Of a DNA stretch of 64,000 nucleotides, positions 47,496 to 57,942 are shown one piece after another. The position numbers were made by a program, and so were the translations under genes. The notes under the pieces were generated by a model. It was not told the DNA's origin, searched no databases, and worked only from the letters and a program-made list of their open reading frames with translations. The stretch lies in assembly GCA_049518775.1 (NCBI GenBank), contig JBEKRL010000002.1, positions 19,689 through 83,688 on the forward strand, written 5' to 3'. This DNA is from Candidatus Dormibacteria bacterium. Its GTDB lineage: Bacteria > Chloroflexota > Dormibacteria > Aeolococcales > Bog-877. Every line of letters starts with the position of its first letter. Within the stretch, counting starts at the first letter, position 1.

Positions 47496-49976
47496 CTAGG
47501 AGCCAGCCGCCGTGACCTCGGCCGGCGGGACCTCTTCGCCCGGGGCCGAAGCCGGCACCAGCTTCATGGAGAGGATGGGCACCCCGCTGCGCTTGGCCCA
47601 CCCCCCCACCCGGGTCTCGTGGGAGAAGATCACCACCTGGGCGGTAGCGGAGAGCTCCTTGAGGGTGTCCAGCAGAGCGGTGCAGCGAGCGTCGTCGGAG
47701 CTGACGGTCGGGTCGTCCAAGATGAGCGGGACCGATTCGCCGCTGGGCGAGAGAGCCTTGGCCAGCACCATCCGCAGGGCCACGTATATCTGCTCCCGGG
47801 TGCCCTGGGAGAGGTCCTGCACCGAGACCTGGGCCTCGCCCTCGCGAGCTGACACGTGCATCGAGAGGTCGGATGGGTCGACCCAGGCCTGCTGGTAGCG
47901 CTGGGCGGTGATCCCGGGCAGCCATCCCCGCAGCCCCTCGGCCAGCACCGGCGCCAGGTCGTTGTGGACAAGTCCCTGGGCCCGCTCCATCTCGGCGATG
48001 GCCAGCTTCACCGCCGCCTCCGCGGCGGTGAGTCGGGCAACCTCGCTGCGCAGCTCGGCCAGCTCCTCATCGAGTTTGGCCACGTCCCCAGCCTCCCGCA
48101 GCTGCTCCGCGAGCCGGCCCTGAAGCGGGAGCAGCTCCTGGCGGATCCGGTCGAGCTTGGCCCGAGCCTCGTCGTGCGCCAGCCGCAGCTGGGCAGACGA
48201 GAGGCCAGCGGCGAGCGGCTCGGCCGGGGTCGGTAGCGAGCCGAGCTCGGCCGAGAGCTCCTTGGCACGCTTGGCCAGGGCCTTGGGCTCCCGCCCCGCC
48301 AGCCGCTCTCCGCGGCGGGCCTCGAGCTCGTCACGGTGCTGCCTCGCGTCCTCCGCCGCGTCCAGCTGGTGGAGGCGAGCCGCGAGCTCGGCGGCGAGCT
48401 TGACCGGGTCGCTCCCGTTGACCCCGACCCGCTTGGCCCGCACCAGCAACTCCTCCCGGAACCGCTGAGCGGTGGCGGCCCACGAGGCGCGCTGCTGGGC
48501 GGCCTCCTGGGCCGCCGGGAGTTGCTCCGCCAACTGCCGAAGGTGCGACGGATCCGCCTTCCCGATCCCCAGCTCGGTGAGCCGCTTGGTCGCCTGGGAG
48601 CGCTCGGTCTCAACCTTGTTTCGGGCCGCCACCGCCTTGCTCATCTGCGGGTCCCCGGCCCGCCGGGCCCGCTCCATCTCGCTGACCGAGCTAAAGCCGC
48701 CCACAGCCAGCAGCAGACGGAGCCGCCGTTGCAGGGCCAGGAACCCGGTGGCGGTCAGAACCAAGAGAACCAGGCCGGCCACCACCAGCCCGATTCGCAA
48801 CCCCCCGGTTGACAAGACGATGCCGCCCGCCACCAGCAACACGCCGGCGATCCCCCCCACCAGGGCCAGGACGTCGGCGAACCAGCGGTGGGTGGCAACC
48901 CGGCGGCGGTCGAGCAGCTCGAGACGGCTGGGGAGCTCCGCGGGGCCGGGTAGCTCCGGCAGCGGCTGCTCCAGCGCCGCGATCAGGAAGGCCAGCTCAC
49001 TGGGGGCTGACTTCTGGGACAGCCGCTCCAGCTCCTCACCCGGCGGTCCCGGCTCCTTGGCCTTGGCATCGGCCTCCTGCCACTGCTGGGCCAGGCCGCG
49101 GGCACCGGTGGCGGCATCCCGGAGGACGGTCGGTTCCTTGGGAAGCTTCAGCTCGGGGGTGGCCTCCAGCTCCTTGGAGAGCTCGGCGACGGCGGCCAGA
49201 TCCTGGTTCAATTCGGCCAGCTCCGCCGTCTTCCAGGCCACCTCGGCGCTCTGGCTGGACTGCTCTGCCTCCGCCAGCTCCGAGCGTAGCCGGGCCTGGG
49301 TGGCCAGTTCATCAGACAGTTGTGAGTGAGCGGCCACCGCCGCCGACAGTCTGGCCGCGGTCTCGTCCAAGAGTTTGGACTGCTTGTCCAGCGGCTTGGT
49401 GGTCGTGCGGTCGCCTCGGATCTTGTCCTGGCGCCAGCGCTGGAGCAGCTCGATCGCCGACCTGGCCGTGCTGTCGCTGCCCGAGGTCGAGCTCGCCTTC
49501 TGGAGATCCTCCTGGAGAGAACTCCCAGTCAGGCTGAGGATCTGGTCCTGGCCCACCGTGGAGATGGCCAGGAAGGCCTCCCGGCTCATCCCCAGGGCCA
49601 CCGAGACGTCCACGGTGCGCCCCCGACGGAACCTGTCGGTGACCTCGCCGCCCTTGATCAGGTCAAAGACCTGGCAGTTGTCAGGTTGGTCGAGATCGCG
49701 AACGAAGCGGTACCGGCCGCCGTCCAGCTCGATCTCGGCCTCGACTGAAAACCGCTTGCCCTGCCAGGGACGGAAGTGACGCAGCACCTCCTCGGTCTCC
49801 TTGGGCATCCGCCCCCGGGCAGGCAGATCCACCCCGCAGAGGGCCACGCGGAGGGCGGTGTGAAGAGTGCTTTTGCCGGACTCGTTGGGACCACCCACCA
49901 CGGTGAGCTGGGGGTCCAGATTGAAGCGCCCGCTCAGGCCACCGAAGCTCTGAAGCTTGACCGACAGAACCCTCAT
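47496..49976 (-). CDS. SbcC/Rad50-like AAA ATPase with internal TM hairpin (B. subtilis YhaN/SbcE-like)
   Basis: N-terminal Walker A GGPNESGKST, long coiled coil, central hydrophobic hairpin (…VLALVGGIAGVLLVAGGIVL…GLVVAGLVLLVLTATGFLAL…), C-terminal signature/D-loop (…VPLILDDPTV…). Confidence 0.8.
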   Translation of the reverse strand: MRVLSVKLQSFGGLSGRFNLDPQLTVVGGPNESGKSTLHTALRVALCGVDLPARGRMPKETEEVLRHFRPWQGKRFSVEAEIELDGGRYRFVRDLDQPDNCQVFDLIKGGEVTDRFRRGRTVDVSVALGMSREAFLAISTVGQDQILSLTGSSLQEDLQKASSTSGSDSTARSAIELLQRWRQDKIRGDRTTTKPLDKQSKLLDETAARLSAAVAAHSQLSDELATQARLRSELAEAEQSSQSAEVAWKTAELAELNQDLAAVAELSKELEATPELKLPKEPTVLRDAATGARGLAQQWQEADAKAKEPGPPGEELERLSQKSAPSELAFLIAALEQPLPELPGPAELPSRLELLDRRRVATHRWFADVLALVGGIAGVLLVAGGIVLSTGGLRIGLVVAGLVLLVLTATGFLALQRRLRLLLAVGGFSSVSEMERARRAGDPQMSKAVAARNKVETERSQATKRLTELGIGKADPSHLRQLAEQLPAAQEAAQQRASWAATAQRFREELLVRAKRVGVNGSDPVKLAAELAARLHQLDAAEDARQHRDELEARRGERLAGREPKALAKRAKELSAELGSLPTPAEPLAAGLSSAQLRLAHDEARAKLDRIRQELLPLQGRLAEQLREAGDVAKLDEELAELRSEVARLTAAEAAVKLAIAEMERAQGLVHNDLAPVLAEGLRGWLPGITAQRYQQAWVDPSDLSMHVSAREGEAQVSVQDLSQGTREQIYVALRMVLAKALSPSGESVPLILDDPTVSSDDARCTALLDTLKELSATAQVVIFSHETRVGGWAKRSGVPILSMKLVPASAPGEEVPPAEVTAAGS

Positions 49977-50007
49977 CCGGGCTCGACCTCCCCGATCCTG
50001 GCTCGGC

Positions 50008-51099
50008 TCACAGAATTGCCGGCTCCTCGCCGCGCAGCGCTTCGAGTCCGGCCCGGAGTGCTGACTGGACCAACTCGGTGTCGAGGTCGCTCCGGGCCAT
50101 CAGGCCACGAACGAACTCCCCGCGAATGTCTGGCGAATGGCTGAGCTCCTCCAGGTCGACCTCGGGGCGGGTAGCGAAGACCACCTCGACGCAGCGCCCG
50201 CCCTCGCGGAGGCGTTCGACCAGCTGGCTGGGGCCGATCCGGACCCCCAAGGCGAGCTCGCCAACCACCCGAACCCTGGCGCCGGTGTTGGGCCCGACCG
50301 GAAGCGCTTCTTTGGCACGTTCGACCACGGCTTCGGAGTGCTGGCAGCCGGTGACGTCGACCTCGACCTCACTGAGGGTGAAGGTACCGACCGGGTGGAT
50401 CTTCACGACCGGGGGCTCGGAGGAGAAATCGACCTCAGCGGCGCCCCGCTCCCCCAGCTCGCCGAAGGTGAGCGGTTCCGGATTGCCCGGATAGACCATC
50501 CTGGCGGTCACCCGCGGAGTGTGGAAGTGGCCGACCAGGCCGAAGCGGAAGCCGGCCTGCGCAATCTCGGGCTCGCCGAAGGGAGCGTGGTCCTCCTTGC
50601 CCTCTCCCTGGACCGGGAGCTGGCCGCGCTCCGAACCGTGGAAGAGGGCGACCGCCGGCTGACCTTCGGGGACCGTGAAGCCCTCCAGAAGGTCGGAGGT
50701 GCCCTTGGGCTTGGTGTGGGCGATGCCGAAGATGCGGAAGCCATCCAGCTCAAAGGGCGCAAACTCGCCGGTGGAGAAGACGTGGACGTTGGCGGGCCAC
50801 TCCTGGACGGCGTAGAGCGACCCCGGGTGCCAGTAGTCGTGGTTACCGGGGGAGATCAGCACCGGGAAGGGGAGCCGCCCCAGCTGCTCCGCCAGGAAGC
50901 GGGCGGTGTCCTGGCCGGCGTAGCGGTCCTCGTAGAGATCGCCAGCGATGGTCAGGGCATCAACCTTGAGCTCGACCGCCAGCCCCACCAGCTTCTGGAA
51001 GGTCTGCCGCAAGGCCACCCGCCGCTGGACGGATGCCTCCGGCCCCAGACCCCGAAACGCGGTGTCCAGGTGCACATCGGCGCAATGCAGCAGACGCAT
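50008..51099 (-). CDS. SbcD/Mre11-family metallophosphoesterase nuclease (YhaO-like)
   Basis: MRLLHCADVHLD…GDLYE…GNHD… calcineurin-like motifs. Confidence 0.85.
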   Translation of the reverse strand: MRLLHCADVHLDTAFRGLGPEASVQRRVALRQTFQKLVGLAVELKVDALTIAGDLYEDRYAGQDTARFLAEQLGRLPFPVLISPGNHDYWHPGSLYAVQEWPANVHVFSTGEFAPFELDGFRIFGIAHTKPKGTSDLLEGFTVPEGQPAVALFHGSERGQLPVQGEGKEDHAPFGEPEIAQAGFRFGLVGHFHTPRVTARMVYPGNPEPLTFGELGERGAAEVDFSSEPPVVKIHPVGTFTLSEVEVDVTGCQHSEAVVERAKEALPVGPNTGARVRVVGELALGVRIGPSQLVERLREGGRCVEVVFATRPEVDLEELSHSPDIRGEFVRGLMARSDLDTELVQSALRAGLEALRGEEPAIL

Positions 51100-51833: not shown

Positions 51834-52616
51834 TCAGTGGCCCGGGGCGGAGTTCCGGTCGATTCGGTAGACGATCACCCCGGCCAGGACCATCGCGATG
51901 CCCATCACCAGCAGCAGGCTGCTGAGTGTCCCGGGAAGGCCGGCACCGGTCGTCGGGGTGCTGGCGCCCAAGACACCACCAGCGGGGCCGGTGCTCGCTC
52001 CGAGCACGCCTCCGGCGGTGGCGCCCGTGAAAGTGGCGACTAGGGTGATGGTGGCTCCGGATCCCTCATAGGGGTTGGTGGCCGCCAGGGGAAACGACCA
52101 GTCGATCACGAAGTTGTCGGAGAAGGTCGTGTTCTGGACCGAGGTGGCCACGATCTGGGAGCTGGAGGAGCTCACACAGTAGGCGGCGTTGGGGTAGGAG
52201 GCCAGCACAGTCTTGGTCGAGTCGGTGTAGCAGGAGATCGGACCGAGGGCAAACGTCTGCCCCGTGGTCGTGTCGGTCACGGTCACCTGGAGTCCATCGG
52301 CCTGACCGTCCAGAAGTGCCTCCGTCCCAGTCCCGCTGCCGCTCGCACGACCAGCGGAACTGGAGGTCGTCCCAATGACTAGGGTCACGTCCACCGGGCC
52401 GCTGTAGCTTGGGGAAGTGGTGTCGCTGATGATCCCGGAGCAGCTCCCCGAGTCACCCGGCACCAGCGTCGTCGAGATTCCGCAGGCCCCCAGCACCGCC
52501 GCCGAAGCTGGGACCAACCCTGCAACACCGACCACGATCCCGGCAGCCCCAGTGAGGAGACCGGCCACGACCAGGCGTGACCACAACCGCCGGGGTCGCA
52601 GGCGCAGGAATCTCAC
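51834..52616 (-). CDS. secreted Ser/Thr-rich protein with N-terminal signal peptide and C-terminal sorting-like signal (LPGTL + TM + basic tail)
   Basis: GTG start 52616, 7 nt after GGAGG: MRFLRLRPRRLWSRLVVAGLLTGAAGIVVGVAG…; C-terminus …GAGLPGTLSSLLLVMGIAMVLAGVIVYRIDRNSAPGH. Confidence 0.6.
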   Translation of the reverse strand: MRFLRLRPRRLWSRLVVAGLLTGAAGIVVGVAGLVPASAAVLGACGISTTLVPGDSGSCSGIISDTTSPSYSGPVDVTLVIGTTSSSAGRASGSGTGTEALLDGQADGLQVTVTDTTTGQTFALGPISCYTDSTKTVLASYPNAAYCVSSSSSQIVATSVQNTTFSDNFVIDWSFPLAATNPYEGSGATITLVATFTGATAGGVLGASTGPAGGVLGASTPTTGAGLPGTLSSLLLVMGIAMVLAGVIVYRIDRNSAPGH

Positions 52617-52893
52617 CACCCCGCCTCCGGGCCGGAAGTCAGCGCGAGCGGCCGGTACTGGACCTGCGTCTCGCTTCGGTATTTCTTCTCCCACTGGACT
52701 GCCTCCCCAGTGACTGTCACCGACCCTCCTGAACAGGAGAGGTCTCGCGTGATTTCAAATGAGTGGGTCGCTGCTGGAGACCCTGGCTCGGCTTCGGCGA
52801 TGAGATCGGCCATCTCAGCAGCAGACCTTGACCATCGGTGCGCCCTGATGGTCGTGAGCACCAGGTTGGATTCGGCACATTTTGGTATAGACC

Positions 52894-53121
52894 TCAGGAG
52901 CTCGGAGTCGCGGTGGGGCTCGGGGTCACAGTGGGACTCGGGGTCACAGTCGGACTCGGGGTCGCAGTCGGACTCGGGGTCGCCGTGGGACTCGGGGAAT
53001 CAGCCGTGATCGTCTGGCCGCTAGTAGTCGTGGTGGTGAAGGTGCCCGCTGCGCCAGTCCCGATCAGGGCGATGCTCGCAACGGCGACTGCAACCAGGAC
53101 CGCAAAGGTCCGAAGTTTCAT
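52894..53121 (-). CDS. mini TasA-like secreted protein: SipW-cognate-type signal peptide + (TPSPTA/V)n tail
   Basis: MKLRTFAVLVAVAVASIALIGTGAAGTFTTTTTSGQTITAD… shares the N-terminal module of the two TasA-like paralogs, then five PT hexapeptide repeats. Confidence 0.55.
   Translation of the reverse strand: MKLRTFAVLVAVAVASIALIGTGAAGTFTTTTTSGQTITADSPSPTATPSPTATPSPTVTPSPTVTPSPTATPSS
52900..52998 (-). repeat. tandem 18-nt repeat (~5 units) encoding TPSPT(A/V)
   Basis: gactcggggtcacagtggg / actcggggtcacagtcgg / actcggggtcgcagtcgg / … visible directly in the sequence. Confidence 0.8.
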
Positions 53122-53341
53122 CTTGCTCCCCCTCCTACGACGCCCCTGATTTGCGGAAGTTGCAGGCCATGGGCGCGGTCAGGAACTGGAGCGGGAGCAG
53201 CATCGTGAGGGGATGGATGCCTAGCCCAATATCGGCGGCCGGCCGGCAAGAGTCCCCGCCCGGCCGTCGAGACGGCACTGGTAGGAGAGCCCCAACTGAG
53301 TCGAGCCTTGGCAGCCGTCGGCAGATCGGGCAGGATCAAGG

Positions 53342-53956
53342 TCATGGCTCCGGGGTACGCCACGGAGGGGCCTGCGCTTGGGGTGCTGGCTCGCGACGGT
53401 CCCAACTCAGCACCGTGCCCCCCACGACCAGCAGCAAGATGACGCCAGCCACGATCAAGTCCAGCCCATGATTGGTGTCTTGCCCTGGGTAGCCCAGGAG
53501 AGGAAGGGTGTACTGCACCACGTAAACGTCCCTGCCACTCACCTTCAACGTCCAAGGGTCAGCGACCGTGTTCGCATCACCCTGGGTCTTGATGATCGTC
53601 TGCCCCGACTTGTCCACCTTGAGGTAGATGACGCGGTGCACCATCTCCACGTCACGCTGGTACGGATTTGTAAAGATGATCACGTCACGGACGGCGAGCT
53701 GACTCACGGGAACCCGCTCAGAGACGGCCACCCCGCCAACCGGGAGTCCGGGTCGCATGCTGCCCGACAGGATCGGCGTCACCATCCAGTTCCCACTGTG
53801 CACCGAAAACACCGCGAACCCCAGTGCACCAAGGACCACCACGACGAGCACTGACCAGATTCCGGTCCGGACACGCCGTGCGACCGTGGCCCTCCGCGGG
53901 CGTCCACGACTCCCGCGCTTTGGGGCGGGGTTCTCACCCTCGGGGATCGTCGCCAT
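53342..53956 (-). CDS. sipW: signal peptidase I, ER/archaeal type (SipW-like, S26B)
   Basis: Boxes SGSMRP (Ser), RDVIIF, MVHRVI (His), GDANTVAD (GDNN-like); N- and C-terminal TM helices; 204 aa. Confidence 0.8.
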   Translation of the reverse strand: MATIPEGENPAPKRGSRGRPRRATVARRVRTGIWSVLVVVVLGALGFAVFSVHSGNWMVTPILSGSMRPGLPVGGVAVSERVPVSQLAVRDVIIFTNPYQRDVEMVHRVIYLKVDKSGQTIIKTQGDANTVADPWTLKVSGRDVYVVQYTLPLLGYPGQDTNHGLDLIVAGVILLLVVGGTVLSWDRREPAPQAQAPPWRTPEP

Positions 53957-54217
53957 GGTCCTATTGTCTGCCTCTCCGTAACGCGGCTGATCGGAGACCA
54001 GGAAGAGCCAATCCGGTCGCCTTCAAAAAGACTCGGTCAAGTCGCAGGCCCACGCCCATCCTGAGTGTAGAACCCATTGAGACGTTCCCCCCCGGGACAG
54101 AATGTTGCCAAGCTCCACTTCCTACCGCGGTCAGATGAATGGGATTCAGGTCAGCCCCCCGCCCCAATGGAGAAGCGGCGGCGGGCGACCACGAGGGCCG
54201 CGCCGCCGCCGAGGCGC

Positions 54218-54865
54218 TTAGCTTGAGTAGGTCAGCGTCACGTTCACCGTGTCAACGCCGTTCTCAGCGTCAGTGCCGAGTTCAGGGGCGTTGCTAATGA
54301 CGTCTGTTGGAGGTGAGCCTGCCTGCACGGGGAAGTGCACAGCGGGATAGATGTAGCCCGACAGGTTGCCGCACCCAGTGTCCTCGTTCCCCGCGTAGAA
54401 CACAACAGTGTAGGTGTCAGTCGCGGTCGGTGCGATCGAACCACCGACGGGCATGTTGCCTAGCCCCTCGTCCGCTGACATGAGGCCATTGAATACAACG
54501 GTGCCGTCGCTGTAGAAGCACATTGACATTTCGCTGGCCAACGCGCTGCCCGGCGTGTTGCCGGAGATGTCCTTCACCTGGAGGTTAATCTCGTTCGCTG
54601 TGACCGTACCGTTGTTGGTGATGGTGATGAGTTGGGGCGTACTGATGAACGACGATCCGACCGGTCCGATGTTCGGGAGGGTCAGGTCGGTCGTGTTTTG
54701 GCCACCGCTTGCGTTCGGTGAAGAGAGGACCACGCTGAGATTCCCAGCCGTGATCGTTTGGCTGCTTGTGGTTTGGGTGGTCCATTGCGCCGCTGCGCCA
54801 GCCCCGATCAGGGCGAGAGCCGCAACGCAGAGCCCCCCAAGTATCGCCATTGTCCGTAGTTTCAT
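54218..54865 (-). CDS. TasA/camelysin (peptidase M73) family secreted protein with SipW-cognate-type signal peptide - paralog B
   Basis: …LIGAGAAAQWTTQTTSSQTITAGNLSVVLS… aligns with the Bacillus TasA/CalY N-terminus (…LIGGGTFAFFSD…NTFAAGTLDLTL…); 215 aa. Confidence 0.75.
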   Translation of the reverse strand: MKLRTMAILGGLCVAALALIGAGAAAQWTTQTTSSQTITAGNLSVVLSSPNASGGQNTTDLTLPNIGPVGSSFISTPQLITITNNGTVTANEINLQVKDISGNTPGSALASEMSMCFYSDGTVVFNGLMSADEGLGNMPVGGSIAPTATDTYTVVFYAGNEDTGCGNLSGYIYPAVHFPVQAGSPPTDVISNAPELGTDAENGVDTVNVTLTYSS

Positions 54866-54965
54866 CTAGTCCCTTCCTTCTTTGATGCCTCTGGTTCGAG
54901 GCTGCTAGAGATAGAGACGGTGCGCGGCCACGAGGGCCGGACCGCTACATAGGCGTGTTCCATGG

Positions 54966-55610
54966 CTAGCCTGAGTACTCCACGGTGATGAACGGAGTGT
55001 CACTGCCGTTCTCAGCCGCGGTGAGCAGTTCTGGCGCAGTGCTAGTGCTGCCTGCCACCAATGGCGTACCGGTACCATACTGCCAGCCCGAATAGCTGCC
55101 GCAGCCTGTGACCTGGTCCGCCCCGGCGTAGAACACAGCCGTGTAGTTGTCGGTACCCAGCGGCGCGAGCGTGGTGGGGTAGAGCCCGATGCTGCCCTCG
55201 GCTCCTGACAAGGGACCGTTGTACACAACCCAGCTCTGGCTGTACAGGCACATGTACACTTCGCTGGCCAACGCGGGTCCAGCAGGAGCTGTGCCAGGGG
55301 TATCACCCACCGTGAGCGTGATCTCGGTCGCTGTGACCGTGCCGTTGTTGGTGATGGCGATGAGTTGGGGCGTGCTGGCGAACGAAGATCCGACCAGTCC
55401 GACCGCCGGCAATGCAAGGCTGGTGCAGCTACCGTAGGCATCGGTTGCCGTGCAGCTGCCGGGGCCTGACAACCCCACGCTGAGATAGCCAGATGCTATC
55501 TGCTGACTGCTGGTAGTTGTGGTGGTCCATTGCGCCGCTGCGCCAGCCCCGATCAAGGCTAGGGCGGCAACGCAGAGCCCACCAAGGATCGCCATTGTCC
55601 GTAGTTTCAT
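54966..55610 (-). CDS. TasA/camelysin (peptidase M73) family secreted protein with SipW-cognate-type signal peptide - paralog A
   Basis: The N-terminal 45 aa are nearly identical to paralog B; overall ~50% identity; 214 aa. Confidence 0.75.
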   Translation of the reverse strand: MKLRTMAILGGLCVAALALIGAGAAAQWTTTTTSSQQIASGYLSVGLSGPGSCTATDAYGSCTSLALPAVGLVGSSFASTPQLIAITNNGTVTATEITLTVGDTPGTAPAGPALASEVYMCLYSQSWVVYNGPLSGAEGSIGLYPTTLAPLGTDNYTAVFYAGADQVTGCGSYSGWQYGTGTPLVAGSTSTAPELLTAAENGSDTPFITVEYSG

Positions 55611-56072
55611 CTAGTCCTCAATCTATGAGGCCCCTGGTTCGGGGCCGCTGCAGATAACGAACCCAGTCGCTGCTCATGCTGCGGGGTTCCGCTGTGATCG
55701 AGGACTCAGCCCGATTGGGCCTCAGTCACGGTTTTCGCCTCACGGGTGGGTACGACTGCGGGCTCGTTGTCGTTGAGCACCGCCGGTCGCTCCGCTACAA
55801 ATCCAGACGCACCCTCCTCCCAACAAACGCTGGCTCACAGGGTTGGGTGGACCACTCCCCAGATCTTTGCTCTCTCTGGCCTACCCAGCCCTACGCCGAC
55901 TGTGTTCCACTCAAGAAACACGTACTCCGAGTGGCAATCGGTTGCCAGCCCCTCCTTTCCAGATTGACGAGACTGTAGCACGTTTGACGGGCTGGTAACG
56001 CTGTTATGTTCAAAAGAACAGGAGCGTTACACCGTCTTCAGATCAGCACTGGCGGGGTTCGAGGGGTCCAGA

Positions 56073-56115
56073 GGCATTGGCTGAGATCAGTGGTAGGCGG
56101 CGTAGGTGCCGATCA
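56073..56115 (-). repeat. ~40-nt copy of the CPBP gene 3' end (second copy at 57155-57197)
   Basis: ggcTgagatcagtggTaggcggcgtAggtgccGatcaGgGag vs ggcCgagatcagtggCaggcggcgtGggtgccCatcaCgAag (capitals mark differing positions). Confidence 0.7.
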
Positions 56116-57168
56116 GGGAGACCGTCTCACCCTCGATAGGAGAAGGGCTGAACTCGAGGTGCATGAGGCTACCCCAGAAGGGTTCCGTTCCTGGCGGCCA
56201 GTCGCCGCTGACCTAGACGTCACGGCCGGGGGCAACCTTGGAAAGGAGTTTCGAGCGTGTCAGCAGCACTGACTCACTCATGCCCCCAGCCGCTTATGGT
56301 AAGGATAACATCGATCGTCACCAGTTAACACCGGCGACGGACTTCAGTTCAACAGAGTGACCGGCTGGCACGGCTCGGGGCGCCTATCCGTGGTCCCCCG
56401 TAGTCGGCACAGGACCCACCTGGGCGGCACCCCCTTCAGGACCGTCCGGAGCGGCGCGTCCGCGGCGGCACATCGCCCGCCATCGTGCAGGGAGGTTAGC
56501 GTCGCGCGTTCGTGCCCGCGTGGGCGCGCCGGAGGGCAACCGGCCAGTGGCGCACGCGACCCGTGACGGTGATCTCCGGCCGATCCCCAGCGCCCGGCTC
56601 TGCGCCGTGGCCGGCGCCGTTACTACACCACCTCTGGCCTTCCTTTCCTCAGCGATGGCCTCACCACGCATGCGCCGCCACCCGGCCCTGGCCCGGTAGG
56701 GAAGCAAACGGCTGTCAGCCGGCCCTCCCACGCCAAAGCCCACGCACCCCAGCGCATCTGGACTCGTTGGCAGCGCCGCCAGGAGGACCGCCGCGCCTCC
56801 GAGCCAGGTAGGTAGCTCGACCAGCGGAGCGCCGAGATACAAGGGGACCCGGGCCTCCCGGCTCACGAGGCGAGGGTCACAGCTCCAGCCAAGTTCCAGC
56901 GACAGCAGCACCATTGACTTCGGGGTGAGGACTGCCTGGCGGATGGGTGCACCGCTCGTTGGCACGATCAACCAGTGGGTGGTCTCATCGGCCCGTAACG
57001 CCAGCACCAGGACACCCAGCAGCGTCCCTACCCTCCGCTGAGCGCATCCTTGGTGGTCGGTCGTGGCGGGCGACTGACGGGTCCGTGCCACCAAACTGAC
57101 GGACTTGTTACGCCGCCATCAGAGGAGCCACGGCTGGGTCCGATCGGCGCCGAGGAGGGGGGCCGAGA

Positions 57169-57942
57169 TCAGTGGCAGGCGGCGTGGGTGCCCATCACGA
57201 AGATCGCCACCACCGCGATCAGGTTGAAGCATGCGTGCAGCACCATTCCCGGCACCAGCGATCGGGATCGCTCGTAGACGAGGGCCAGGGCCAATCCAGC
57301 GATGAACAGTGACGGGCCCAGGAGCAGGATCGAGCCGCCCACGGACAGGGTGTGAGCCAGGGCGAAGACGGCGGCGCTGATGAGCACCGACAGGGTCACC
57401 CCCAGGCGGGGCCGCAGGCCCCCGTATATGAATCCCCGGAAGACGATCTCCTCCACGATGGGGGCGATGATGGCGATGGAGATCACCGCCAGGTAGGGAT
57501 CGCCCCCGAAGGCCTGGGAAATGGTGCAGTCCTGCGGGTTCTTTATCCCTCCCAGGAGGGGGGAGAGGAACTCCGAGATGAGCCCGGTGAGGATCTGGAG
57601 CCCCAGCGCCGCGGGCGGCATCAGGATCACCAGCCAGAGCGGAGCCCGGTGAATGCCCAGCCGGGCCCAGGCGCGCCCGGACCGGCGGCTGGCGAAGAAG
57701 ACCACGATCGCCAGCAGCGCTCCGTAGAAGGCGAGGGTGGTCGCGAAGTTGTAGTAAGGCAGGATCACCTTGAAGGGGTGCCCGGTCAGCGACCGGATCA
57801 CCCCCACCTGGTGTAGCCCGAGCACCACGATCGCGGGCACGACGAGTGCCACCACCAGGGCCGGGACCGCCACCACCGTGGCCAGGAGGATCTGACGCAG
57901 GCCCCAGGTGACCTCGGCGCTCGCTGGGTCCGTCGGCTCCAC
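57169..57942 (-). CDS. CPBP-family intramembrane glutamic endopeptidase (CAAX protease / Abi)
   Basis: EExxxR motif (IVEEIVFRG), FxxxH (FALAH), C-terminal His (VLHACFN); 6-7 TM helices. Confidence 0.8.
   Translation of the reverse strand: MEPTDPASAEVTWGLRQILLATVVAVPALVVALVVPAIVVLGLHQVGVIRSLTGHPFKVILPYYNFATTLAFYGALLAIVVFFASRRSGRAWARLGIHRAPLWLVILMPPAALGLQILTGLISEFLSPLLGGIKNPQDCTISQAFGGDPYLAVISIAIIAPIVEEIVFRGFIYGGLRPRLGVTLSVLISAAVFALAHTLSVGGSILLLGPSLFIAGLALALVYERSRSLVPGMVLHACFNLIAVVAIFVMGTHAACH

Follow-up and report, generated by a model that had tools for sequence, protein, structure and literature searches.

Among the protein scaffolds of Gram-positive biofilms, fibres of the TasA type are the best understood; experiments have so far centred on a small number of Firmicutes and certain archaea. 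TapA starts TasA filaments by donating its N-terminal strand, and F29 of TasA is a key conserved donor-strand contact (PMC10151520); only the first 57 residues of TapA are needed (10.1101/794164). The aromatic P2' residue makes TasA a poor substrate for P-type peptidases (PMC10269814). For the BsaA/TasA family it has been proposed that subunits exchange donor strands at the membrane and are then cleaved by SipW; BsaA subunits are locked by an Asn-Glu-Lys intermolecular isopeptide bond, and the operons often contain anchored (LPxTG) proteins and several paralogs (PMC11580942, PMC7395162). General descriptions exist of operons in which several paralogs of TasA are combined with anchored proteins and a signal peptidase (PMC11580942), and Actinobacteriota and Chloroflexota are among the groups with known TasA homologues (PMC9245690).

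The cluster presented here, from an uncultured soil bacterium (Candidatus Dormibacteria), is probably a diverged form of the TasA/SipW biofilm-fibre system of Bacillus. In the 64-kb window (the whole stretch of DNA that was analysed) the first-pass annotation had described five co-directional minus-strand genes, and the ORF listing places all five exactly there; the list below also includes an RNA stem-loop:

54966..55610, minus strand: TasA-like putative fibre subunit, paralog 1, 214 aa (ORF)
54218..54865, minus strand: TasA-like putative fibre subunit, paralog 2, 215 aa (ORF)
54153..54218, minus strand: GC-rich stem-loop (RNA fold)
53342..53956, minus strand: ER/archaeal-type signal peptidase I, SipW-like, 204 aa (TIGR02228, SEC11A/C alignment)
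52894..53121, minus strand: strand-only putative mini-subunit, 75 aa (alignment with the paralogs)
51834..52616, minus strand: beta-sandwich protein with putative anchor, 260 aa (ORF and NCBI gene call)

Gene cluster and signal peptidase

The gene order is subunits-sipW-mini-anchor. Intergenic gaps range from 100 to 277 nt, so that a single operon is not established. Purine-rich Shine-Dalgarno-like sequences precede the ATG starts of both paralogs and of the mini gene, the latter having a strong GGAGGGGGAG sequence upstream. For the 260-aa gene the mechanical ORF reaches a GTG at 52694; the GTG at 52616, proposed as the start, has GGAGG eight bases upstream, and the product read from it is 100% identical to the NCBI gene call (P0069). 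The GC content of about 70% given for the organism holds for the flanks (68-75%) but not for the cluster itself, which has only 60-66%.

No promoter was found by a sigma-70 promoter scan and no canonical terminator by a terminator scan, and Rfam and tRNA scans of the 64 kb gave no matches. Directly 3' of the stop codon of paralog 2 lies the stem-loop, with a folding energy of −46.5 kcal/mol (z −2.56 versus shuffles); it has no U-tract, and the terminator scan did not report it. Its role may be that of an attenuator or partial terminator, keeping subunit expression high relative to that of the accessory genes.

The peptidase scores 62 bits against TIGR02228 (ER/archaeal-type, MEROPS S26B; cut-off 51.85) versus 24.1 bits against TIGR02227 (bacterial P-type; cut-off 47), so the P-type model is the poorer fit. 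Position by position, its boxes SGSMRP, VHRV and GDANTVAD match up with SGSMEP, VHRV and GDNNAVDD in human SEC11A/C. These are also its only sequence relatives in the PDB, with Ser, His and Asp aligned, and no P-type peptidase was matched in that search at E <= 1. Hydrophobic segments, presumably membrane-spanning, are present at the N- and C-terminal ends. The model score and the catalytic alignment uphold the ER-type class read earlier from the SGSMRP/HRV/GDAN boxes. The central proposal of that reading, namely a SipW-like peptidase of this class encoded with TasA-type secreted subunits, is supported. With 45.9 bits, the protein does not reach the cut-off of 190 of the Bacillus SipW equivalog model (NF046067); it probably works like SipW but is not its orthologue by the NCBI criterion.

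The sipW-like gene adjoins the TasA-like genes on their downstream side in 16 of 19 genome loci from three phyla (the scan of the genome collection used 12 closer family sequences; the loci outside the 16 are incomplete). It also lies downstream of them in six of seven distinct metagenome loci (L003-L005, L008, L009, L011), the seventh ending within the second TasA-like gene. Judged by this linkage across lineages, the peptidase is most probably a SipW in the functional sense, dedicated to the neighbouring substrates. The Dormibacterota considered here come from MAGs only, the names of which point to peat and permafrost soils.

TasA-like subunits and the 75-aa protein

The paralogs are 59-63% identical to each other. 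Over their first 30 codons they differ by six synonymous and no non-synonymous substitutions, which indicates purifying selection and not chance or recent copying. The N-terminus that both had been said to share with the mini protein was recovered as an alignment over MKLRT..A.L....A..A.IG.GAA...T..TTS.Q.I. In paralog 1, a SipW-type signal peptide with predicted cleavage between AAA and QW is followed by the N-terminal donor-strand segment and, as the body, by a beta-sandwich with four Cys; paralog 2 has a like architecture with a conserved Cys116-Cys165 pair.

The models of the TasA/M73 families and of the SipW-cognate signal class gave matches in many of the homologues; on their own, the two paralogs of the window remained under the cut-offs. 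Among 45 homologues, 33 match TIGR04088 (SipW-cognate signal; best E 3.5e-5), 29 match PF12389 weakly (best E 2e-4) and 16 match NF046066 (NCBIfam TasA; best E 5.6e-5). Paralog 2 stays below the curated cut-offs, with 14.1 bits against both PF12389 (cut-off 22.5) and TIGR04088 (cut-off 19). Paralog 1 alone matches none of the three models, and neither it nor the mini protein was reported in the TIGR04088 search. This TasA-like subfamily is not currently detected by Pfam. As the family profile also returned nothing from all PDB sequences at E <= 10, the link to TasA required fold comparison and hhalign. The latter aligned the family to TasA at E 9.7e-5, with the cleavage site and the NNG motif in register.

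The structure model from the alignment that includes paralog 1 (A1) matches the TasA fibre. The fold is a jelly-roll/Ig-like beta-sandwich, closest to TasA and related donor-strand filament subunits; the best structural match is TasA (PDB 8AUR system), at a modest TM-score of 0.44 and a sequence identity of 9-11%. The predictions are of monomers, and in the monomer model residues 27-44, the N-terminal segment, are not packed as a strand. The A-x-A cleavage site expected earlier is conserved, with Ala at −3 and −1 in 44 of the 45 homologues, and so is the strand motif that follows it: the P2' residue is aromatic in all 45, Q36 and I38 are present in 43 and G41 in all 45. Mature subunits contain one Lys or none, which makes an isopeptide lock of the BsaA type unlikely; for paralog 1, without any Lys, it is very unlikely.

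The 75-aa protein comprises a SipW-type signal peptide, a donor-strand segment (TFTTTTTSGQTITA) and a Pro/Thr repeat tail, as had been noted, without globular body or anchor. Aligned with the paralogs, it keeps the strand residues 27-40 and diverges exactly where the invariant Gly41 starts the body. Two other Dormibacterota MAG lineages have orthologues (118 and 120 aa) encoded between sipW and the anchored gene. Across the three lineages identity is 51-62%; the PT tail varies in length, giving whole proteins of 75-120 aa, and is never disrupted. The signal-strand module with its PT linker also heads Ig-repeat proteins of 877 and 989 aa (L013 and L008), suggesting a general way to mount cargo on such fibres.

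Neither the mini protein nor the 260-aa protein matches TIGR04087 (TapA). The likeness of the mini protein to TapA is functional only and lies in an N-terminal strand homologous to that of the major subunit. In the first-pass annotation the TapA position had been given to a protein with a sorting signal; its gene is present, but the role of TapA more likely falls to the 75-aa protein. The latter would be a natural counterpart of the laboratory result that the N-terminal ~57 residues of TapA are sufficient, and a simple system for probing nucleation or capping of donor-strand fibres.

The 260-aa protein and its C-terminal signal

The 260-aa protein begins with a signal or membrane helix and a Cys-containing beta-sandwich (residues ~40-200), followed by a GVLGAST repeat linker, a TPxTG motif, a membrane helix and a basic tail. 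The sorting-like anchor ascribed to its C-terminus is hence there as far as hydrophobic helix and basic tail are concerned, with TPxTG and not LPXTG as the motif. Motif, helix and tail are invariant in 22 of 22 homologues. The LPXTG anchor models (TIGR01167, PF00746) do not match the window protein; in its 22 homologues PF00746 was found in four (best E 0.043), NPXTG in two and TIGR01167 in one (E 0.35).

The same signal recurs on unrelated proteins of the lineage. Searching the database with a C-terminal anchor profile returned at least eight short proteins, two of which, P0252 and P0254, carry the signal on different domains. TPxTG may be a lineage-specific sorting signal. No ORF with the sortase motif TLxTC is present in the 64-kb window or any compared locus, and a literature search on sortases and the cell envelope of Dormibacterota found nothing relevant. 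A CPBP/Rce1-like protease (57169-57942) was considered as the sorting enzyme and rejected: its gene lies near the cluster only in the close relatives L004 and L010 and is absent from loci L003, L005 and L011.

Two further ideas on this protein were dropped. Profile-profile comparison with the TasA-like family gave a probability of 1.3%, so that it is not regarded as a third, anchored TasA paralog. A twin-arginine signal was rejected, the RR pair not being conserved among homologues. As the protein shows no detectable relation to the subunits or to TapA and its fold match is non-specific, synteny is what connects it with the fibre.

Proposed fibre and comparison with known systems

We consider it rather probable that the cluster encodes a chaperone-free extracellular fibre system of the TasA type. 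In such a system, Sec would export the 214/215-aa paralogs, and the dedicated SipW-like peptidase would cut after A-x-A, exposing an N-terminal strand with an aromatic residue at position 2. By donor-strand complementation this strand would enter the open beta-sandwich of the neighbouring subunit, so that the beta-sandwiches line up as beads in a fibre. Lacking a body, the mini protein, processed likewise, could use its donor strand only to fill the groove of a subunit at one fibre end; it would be an initiator or cap, comparable to the N-terminal segment that is essential in TapA, leaving its Pro/Thr-rich tail at that end. The 260-aa protein, membrane-attached or transferred to the wall via its C-terminal signal, would hold the fibre on the cell. 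What the sequences and models show is the class of the peptidase, a TasA-like fold, the conservation of cleavage site and strand motif, and the linkage of the genes; polymerisation, the roles given to the mini and 260-aa proteins and a physical link of the latter to the fibre are inferences.

A smaller functional system, made up of the peptidase and the two TasA-like genes alone, is unlikely in our judgement; the 75-aa ORF would then be a decaying 5' duplicate of a subunit gene and the 260-aa protein an unrelated neighbouring membrane protein. Many loci with tasA-like, sipW and anchored genes have no mini gene (L003, L005, L011, L017, L019, L020), and the mini gene is hence not essential to the system in general; in the window, it is flanked by gaps of 220-277 nt. 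Yet its ORF is intact, with a strong ribosome-binding site, and the design of signal, strand and PT tail is kept in three Dormibacterota lineages, in two of which its end meets or overlaps the anchored gene's start. The anchored gene, for its part, is absent from all Actinomycetota loci compared, and its product lacks homology to subunits or TapA; however, its position directly after sipW, sometimes with an overlap, recurs in about ten loci whose flanks otherwise differ.

Other readings concern the paralogs themselves. That they are processed by SipW and are secreted or surface-exposed, yet act as monomeric beta-sandwich proteins (adhesins, matrix proteins or proteins associated with the wall) and do not polymerise, seems to us quite improbable. 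An exceedingly small probability is assigned to precursors of ribosomally synthesised peptides or bacteriocins, or to a camelysin-type metalloprotease (Peptidase_M73). The former is prompted by IMG, where many homologues are named 'predicted ribosomally synthesized peptide with SipW-like signal peptide', but the mature products are predicted to be folded beta-sandwiches of about 190 aa, and the cluster contains neither a modification enzyme nor an export ABC transporter. The latter takes its name from the nearest Pfam family; with no His in paralog 1 and one in paralog 2 there is no HExxH site, and the M73 'peptidase' label is probably a misidentification (PMC11580942).

Returning to the TasA-type fibre, a bolder version, which we regard as doubtful though conceivable, is a self-contained donor-strand machine with three roles: a strand-only initiator or cap ('minimal TapA'), two shaft subunits and a TPxTG-fixed basal subunit taking the last donor strand, its signal previously undescribed and lineage-wide in Dormibacterota, which would imply a sorting enzyme of new specificity. 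The present loci extend the TasA system with its dedicated peptidase to a candidate phylum, Dormibacterota, and to uncultured Acidimicrobiia.

Like tapA-sipW-tasA of B. subtilis (PDB 8AUR), the cluster encodes a dedicated ER-type signal peptidase beside its substrates. It shares with TasA a signal peptide ending in LAL(I/V)G.G...A, the aromatic P2' residue, and the N-terminal donor strand followed by a beta-sandwich with NNG motif; an accessory protein with a TasA-like N-terminal strand is found in both, TapA in the case of B. subtilis (PMC10151520). It differs in its sequences (~10% identity, below the Pfam/NCBIfam TasA cut-offs), in the duplicated major subunit, in the additional TPxTG-bearing beta-sandwich protein, in a strand accessory that has a PT tail instead of the TapA Ig domain and no TIGR04087 match, in gene order, and in its host, an uncultured lineage.

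The sipW-bsaA-bsaB-bsaC operon of Clostridium perfringens (PMC11580942, PMC7395162) likewise joins a SipW gene to two TasA-like paralogs, whereas the Dormibacteria cluster has no vWA protein and no adjacent sortase, and TPxTG in place of LPxTG. Filaments of the archaeal TasA superfamily (Pyrobaculum AbpA bundling pili, 7UEG; Sulfolobus threads, 7PNB; Pyrodictium cannulae, 9H8B) differ in using a general signal peptidase without a dedicated gene (PMC9245690); some have isopeptide bonds, calcium or glycosylation, and accessory proteins such as AbpB are large. With sortase-anchored surface proteins and basal pilins of Gram-positive bacteria the 260-aa protein shares an xPxTG motif, hydrophobic helix and basic tail, while its motif is TPxTG and LPXTG models reach only E 0.04-0.35 in a few homologues. 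In membership the cluster is thus unlike tapA-sipW-tasA, as had been claimed, but with similar operons and TasA homologues already reported, its architecture is less unusual than it was first taken to be.

Layout of the gene cluster

All five minus-strand open reading frames (ORFs) on which the first-pass annotation had based a TasA/SipW-type fibre cluster were found again:

54966-55610, minus strand: paralog 1, TasA-like subunit, 214-aa ORF
54218-54865, minus strand: paralog 2, TasA-like subunit, 215-aa ORF
53342-53956, minus strand: predicted ER-type signal peptidase, 204-aa ORF
52894-53121, minus strand: mini protein, 75-aa ORF
51834-52616, minus strand: anchored protein, 260-aa ORF

Both paralogs and the mini gene have ATG starts with purine-rich ribosome-binding sequences upstream. 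The mechanical ORF of the anchored gene reaches back to a GTG at 52694. The GTG at 52616 is preceded by GGAGG eight bases upstream, and a start there yields the same 260-aa product as the NCBI call P0069 from a Candidatus Dormibacteria MAG (100% identity). Gene calls in the JGI metagenome copy of the contig are identical, and the source organism is a member of the class Candidatus Dormibacteria (phylum Dormiibacterota). An 82-aa ORF (52613-52861, minus strand; 66 aa as called by JGI) fills the space between the mini and anchored genes. Its stop codon shares bases with the GTG at which the anchored gene starts (GTGA), and no homologue of it was present in any other compared locus.

The intergenic gaps measure 100, 261, 220 and 277 nt, and neither a sigma-70-like promoter nor a canonical terminator was found within the cluster. 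A strong GC-rich stem-loop lies immediately 3' of paralog 2 (−46.5 kcal/mol, z −2.56) and a weaker, related one 3' of paralog 1. These putative attenuators could reduce read-through and so provide subunits in excess of the accessory proteins.

The GC content of the cluster is 60–66% versus 68–75% in the flanks, the drop extending over 52000-56500 and so taking in the upstream spacer as well. Coding rich in Ser, Thr and Asn may explain this, or the cluster may have been acquired horizontally. The upstream flank carries CPBP/Rce1-like protease, DXP synthase, DUF885 and EamA genes. Directly downstream (47496-51099, minus strand) lies an SbcCD-like pair, an SbcC-like AAA ATPase of 826 aa and an SbcD-like metallophosphoesterase of 363 aa, which are housekeeping or repair genes unrelated to the cluster. 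A periplasmic binding protein gene comes next. Scans of the whole window for Rfam families and tRNAs gave no matches.

The TasA-like subunits and the signal peptidase

Taken singly, the paralogs did not reach the cut-offs of the family models named in the first-pass annotation. Paralog 2 scored 14.1 bits with both PF12389 (E 0.042; cut-off 22.5) and TIGR04088 (E 0.041; cut-off 19), and paralog 1 matched neither model. A word-indexed search of 5.8 billion sequences returned 68 homologues. Every one came from a metagenome or MAG, none had a Pfam domain precomputed, and many carry IMG names referring to a SipW-like signal. Since a profile search of 1.84 billion cluster representatives found 405, the TasA-like family is modest in size. 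The weak family signals become consistent across an alignment of 45 sequences: TIGR04088 is matched by 33 of the 45 (best E 3.5e-5), PF12389 by 29 (best E 2e-4) and the NCBIfam TasA model by 16 (best E 5.6e-5).

The AlphaFold2 model built on this alignment was good (pLDDT 78.9, pTM 0.70) and shows a beta-sandwich from residue 45 on, the N-terminal segment not being packed as a strand. Its fold matches, TasA and related filament subunits, form polymers via donor-strand complementation. Comparison of the alignment with B. subtilis TasA by hhalign (E 9.7e-5, probability 58%), taken here as a lead only, placed LALIGAGAAA/QW on LALVGGGTWA/AF, ITAGNLSV on FASGTLDL and ITNNG on FENNG. We place the paralogs in the TasA structural superfamily as divergent members that current Pfam and NCBIfam thresholds do not capture.

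In the window's proteins, cleavage is predicted after A26 in the subunits, which would give QW.. N-termini, and after G26 in the mini protein, which would give TF... Motif counts for the cleavage site and the strand that follows it are listed below for the 45 homologues.

Table. Conserved positions around the cleavage site and strand (45 homologues)
Positions −3 and −1: Ala, 44/45 each
Position P2': aromatic (F 40, W 4, Y 1), 45/45
Position 36: Gln, 43/45
Position 38: Ile, 43/45
Position 41: Gly, 45/45

E. coli LepB processes the TasA signal poorly on account of its aromatic P2' residue, and this has been put forward to explain why a dedicated SipW exists (PMC10269814). The equivalent residue of TasA, F29, provides a key and conserved contact for the strand once inserted (PMC10151520). 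Over their first 30 codons the two paralogs differ by six synonymous and no non-synonymous changes, versus six and five in the following 15 codons; the signal-plus-strand segment is therefore constrained.

Cys116 and Cys165 are both present in 36 of the 45 homologues and both missing in nine, a co-occurrence as expected for a disulfide. A Lys isopeptide lock as in BsaA (PMC11580942) is disfavoured because the mature subunits contain no or one Lys; they have no Arg, and with so few basic residues would be resistant to trypsin-like proteases and strongly acidic. Ser, Thr, Asn and Gly make up 43–44% of the mature subunits (54218-55610). Paralog 1 has no His and paralog 2 one, so neither carries a metalloprotease motif.

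The 204-aa peptidase reaches 62 bits with the archaeal/ER-type signal peptidase I model TIGR02228 (NCBIfam; cut-off 51.85), only 24 bits with the bacterial P-type model and 45.9 bits with the Bacillus SipW equivalog (cut-off 190). Its only sequence relatives among solved structures are human SEC11A and SEC11C, catalytic subunits of the signal peptidase complex, whose SGSMEP, VHRV and GDNNAVDD boxes align with SGSMRP, VHRV and GDANTVAD. Because the VHRV box is shared, the general base is His and not Lys. The earlier ER-type assignment thus holds against the P-type alternative; the enzyme is predicted from its sequence to work like SipW, and by the NCBI criterion is not a SipW orthologue.

Linkage of the two functions was followed in homologous loci (L numbers): eleven from metagenomes, of which seven are distinct and four are duplicates or copies of the window's contig, and nineteen from genomes, all MAGs (Acidimicrobiales; the further Actinomycetota Dermatophilaceae, Nocardioides and Propionibacteriales; Dormibacterota; and Chloroflexia). 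The SipW-like gene lies directly downstream of one to four subunit gene copies in 16 of the 19 genome loci, the remaining three ending at the contig end, and downstream of TasA-like genes in the metagenome loci L003, L004, L005-7, L008, L009 and L011. A histidine kinase and a GerE/LuxR-type response regulator adjoin the cluster in three unrelated loci (L004, L009, L011), which suggests dedicated regulation in some lineages; the window has no such pair beside its cluster. Within the genome collection, paralog 2 finds its closest homologues in Acidimicrobiales/Actinomycetota MAGs (53–56% identity), with 41–54% in Dormibacterota MAGs, a pattern that hints at transfer between phyla or binning errors.

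A second, different SipW-associated cluster is found in a Dormibacteraeota MAG (L004 4195-7256, equal to about 2200-5271 in L018). It encodes a secreted protein of 165 aa, an ER-type peptidase of 180 aa (MHRIV, GDNNDFTD) and proteins of 403 and 225 aa; genes for a GerE-type response regulator and a histidine kinase lie ahead of it. In L004/L018 this two-component system and second cluster lie within a segment of about 5.8 kb between CPBP ends. In the window, the 3' end of the CPBP/Rce1-like gene with about 60 nt downstream (57107-57219) recurs at 56026-56137, some 1.1 kb away and shortly before the fibre cluster begins, the two copies being 72% identical over 113 nt; the repeats flank an unannotatable 236-aa ORF (56384-57094) with no Pfam match. 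In L004/L016/L018 and L010, too, C-terminal CPBP fragments immediately precede the TasA-like gene, and the arrangement looks like a recurrent insertion site.

The mini protein and the anchored protein

The mini protein matches the paralogs through signal peptide and strand (GAAG/TFTTTTTSGQTITA); the match stops exactly at the invariant Gly41, where SPSPTATPSPTATPSPTVTPSPTVTPSPTATPSS takes over. In two further Dormibacterota lineages (L004/L018 and L024), orthologues with the same design and longer PT tails (118 and 120 aa, 51–62% identity) are located between sipW and the anchored gene, with a partial copy in L016; in these relatives the mini gene abuts or overlaps the anchored gene. The signal, strand and PT-linker module also heads proteins of 877 aa (L013 1319-3952) and 989 aa (L008 4807-7776) in Acidimicrobiales-type loci, and the strand module is therefore portable. 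Both continue as a series of domain repeats that faintly match bacterial Ig-like (Big) families. Through strand donation they might be held on the fibre as tip adhesins; they sit in clusters with two to four TasA-like paralogs and sipW.

A protein that has a donor strand and lacks an acceptor fold could be placed in such a polymer at one site alone, the groove left open at one of its ends. TapA, located at the filament end, starts TasA filaments via N-terminal strand donation (PMC10151520), and in vivo its first 57 residues suffice (10.1101/794164). Given this resemblance, a TapA-like role would by analogy belong to the mini protein rather than the 260-aa protein, which the first-pass annotation had put in the TapA position. 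As the mini gene is absent from many related loci, it is an optional component.

The anchored protein has 33 homologues, and its gene directly follows sipW in L003, L004/L018, L005-7, L011, L017, L019, L020 and L024, all of them from Dormibacterota or Chloroflexia MAGs; the Actinomycetota loci compared lack this arrangement. Conserved in the family are an N-terminal helix that ends with an ASA-type site, three invariant Cys, TEA.LDG and W.FP..NPYQG. In the C-terminal part the GVLGAST repeat, present once or twice, is followed by an invariant TPxTG(A), in most cases LPET(L/V)G, and a hydrophobic helix with an Arg-rich tail behind it. LPXTG-type anchor models gave faint matches in few homologues (PF00746 4/22, best E 0.043; TIGR01167 1/22, E 0.35). 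The signal (G)VLGAST...TPxTG[AS] with helix and basic tail behaves as a sorting or anchoring signal specific to the lineage would, since it also ends unrelated proteins:

225-aa protein of the second SipW cluster, L004/L018: GVLGAST...TPVTGS, helix, basic tail
ORFs in L020 and L021
database protein fragments P0252 and P0254

The sortase motif TLxTC, a weak test, was found in no ORF of the window or the compared loci. Judged by its synteny, the 260-aa protein may tether the fibre.

Comparison with known fibre systems

Overall, the analysis supports a putative fibre cluster in which an ER-type peptidase accompanies TasA-type subunits and the TapA-like role would fall to the mini protein; the main uncertainty lies in polymerisation and in the roles of both accessory proteins. 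TasA homologues detected by PF12389 are reported from Firmicutes, Actinobacteriota, Chloroflexota, Fusobacteriota, Patescibacteria and many archaea (PMC9245690), and genes of the BsaA/TasA family are reported to share putative operons, in many cases, with several paralogs, LPxTG proteins and genes for a sortase and a signal peptidase (PMC11580942). In general architecture the cluster is thus not new; no literature on such systems in Dormibacterota was found. The present cluster differs from the reported TasA/BsaA systems in its subunits, whose subfamily, found in Dormibacterota and uncultured Acidimicrobiia, scores below the thresholds of current models, in its strand-only mini-subunit with a PT tail, and in its partner protein, a new family with a TPxTG-type anchor.
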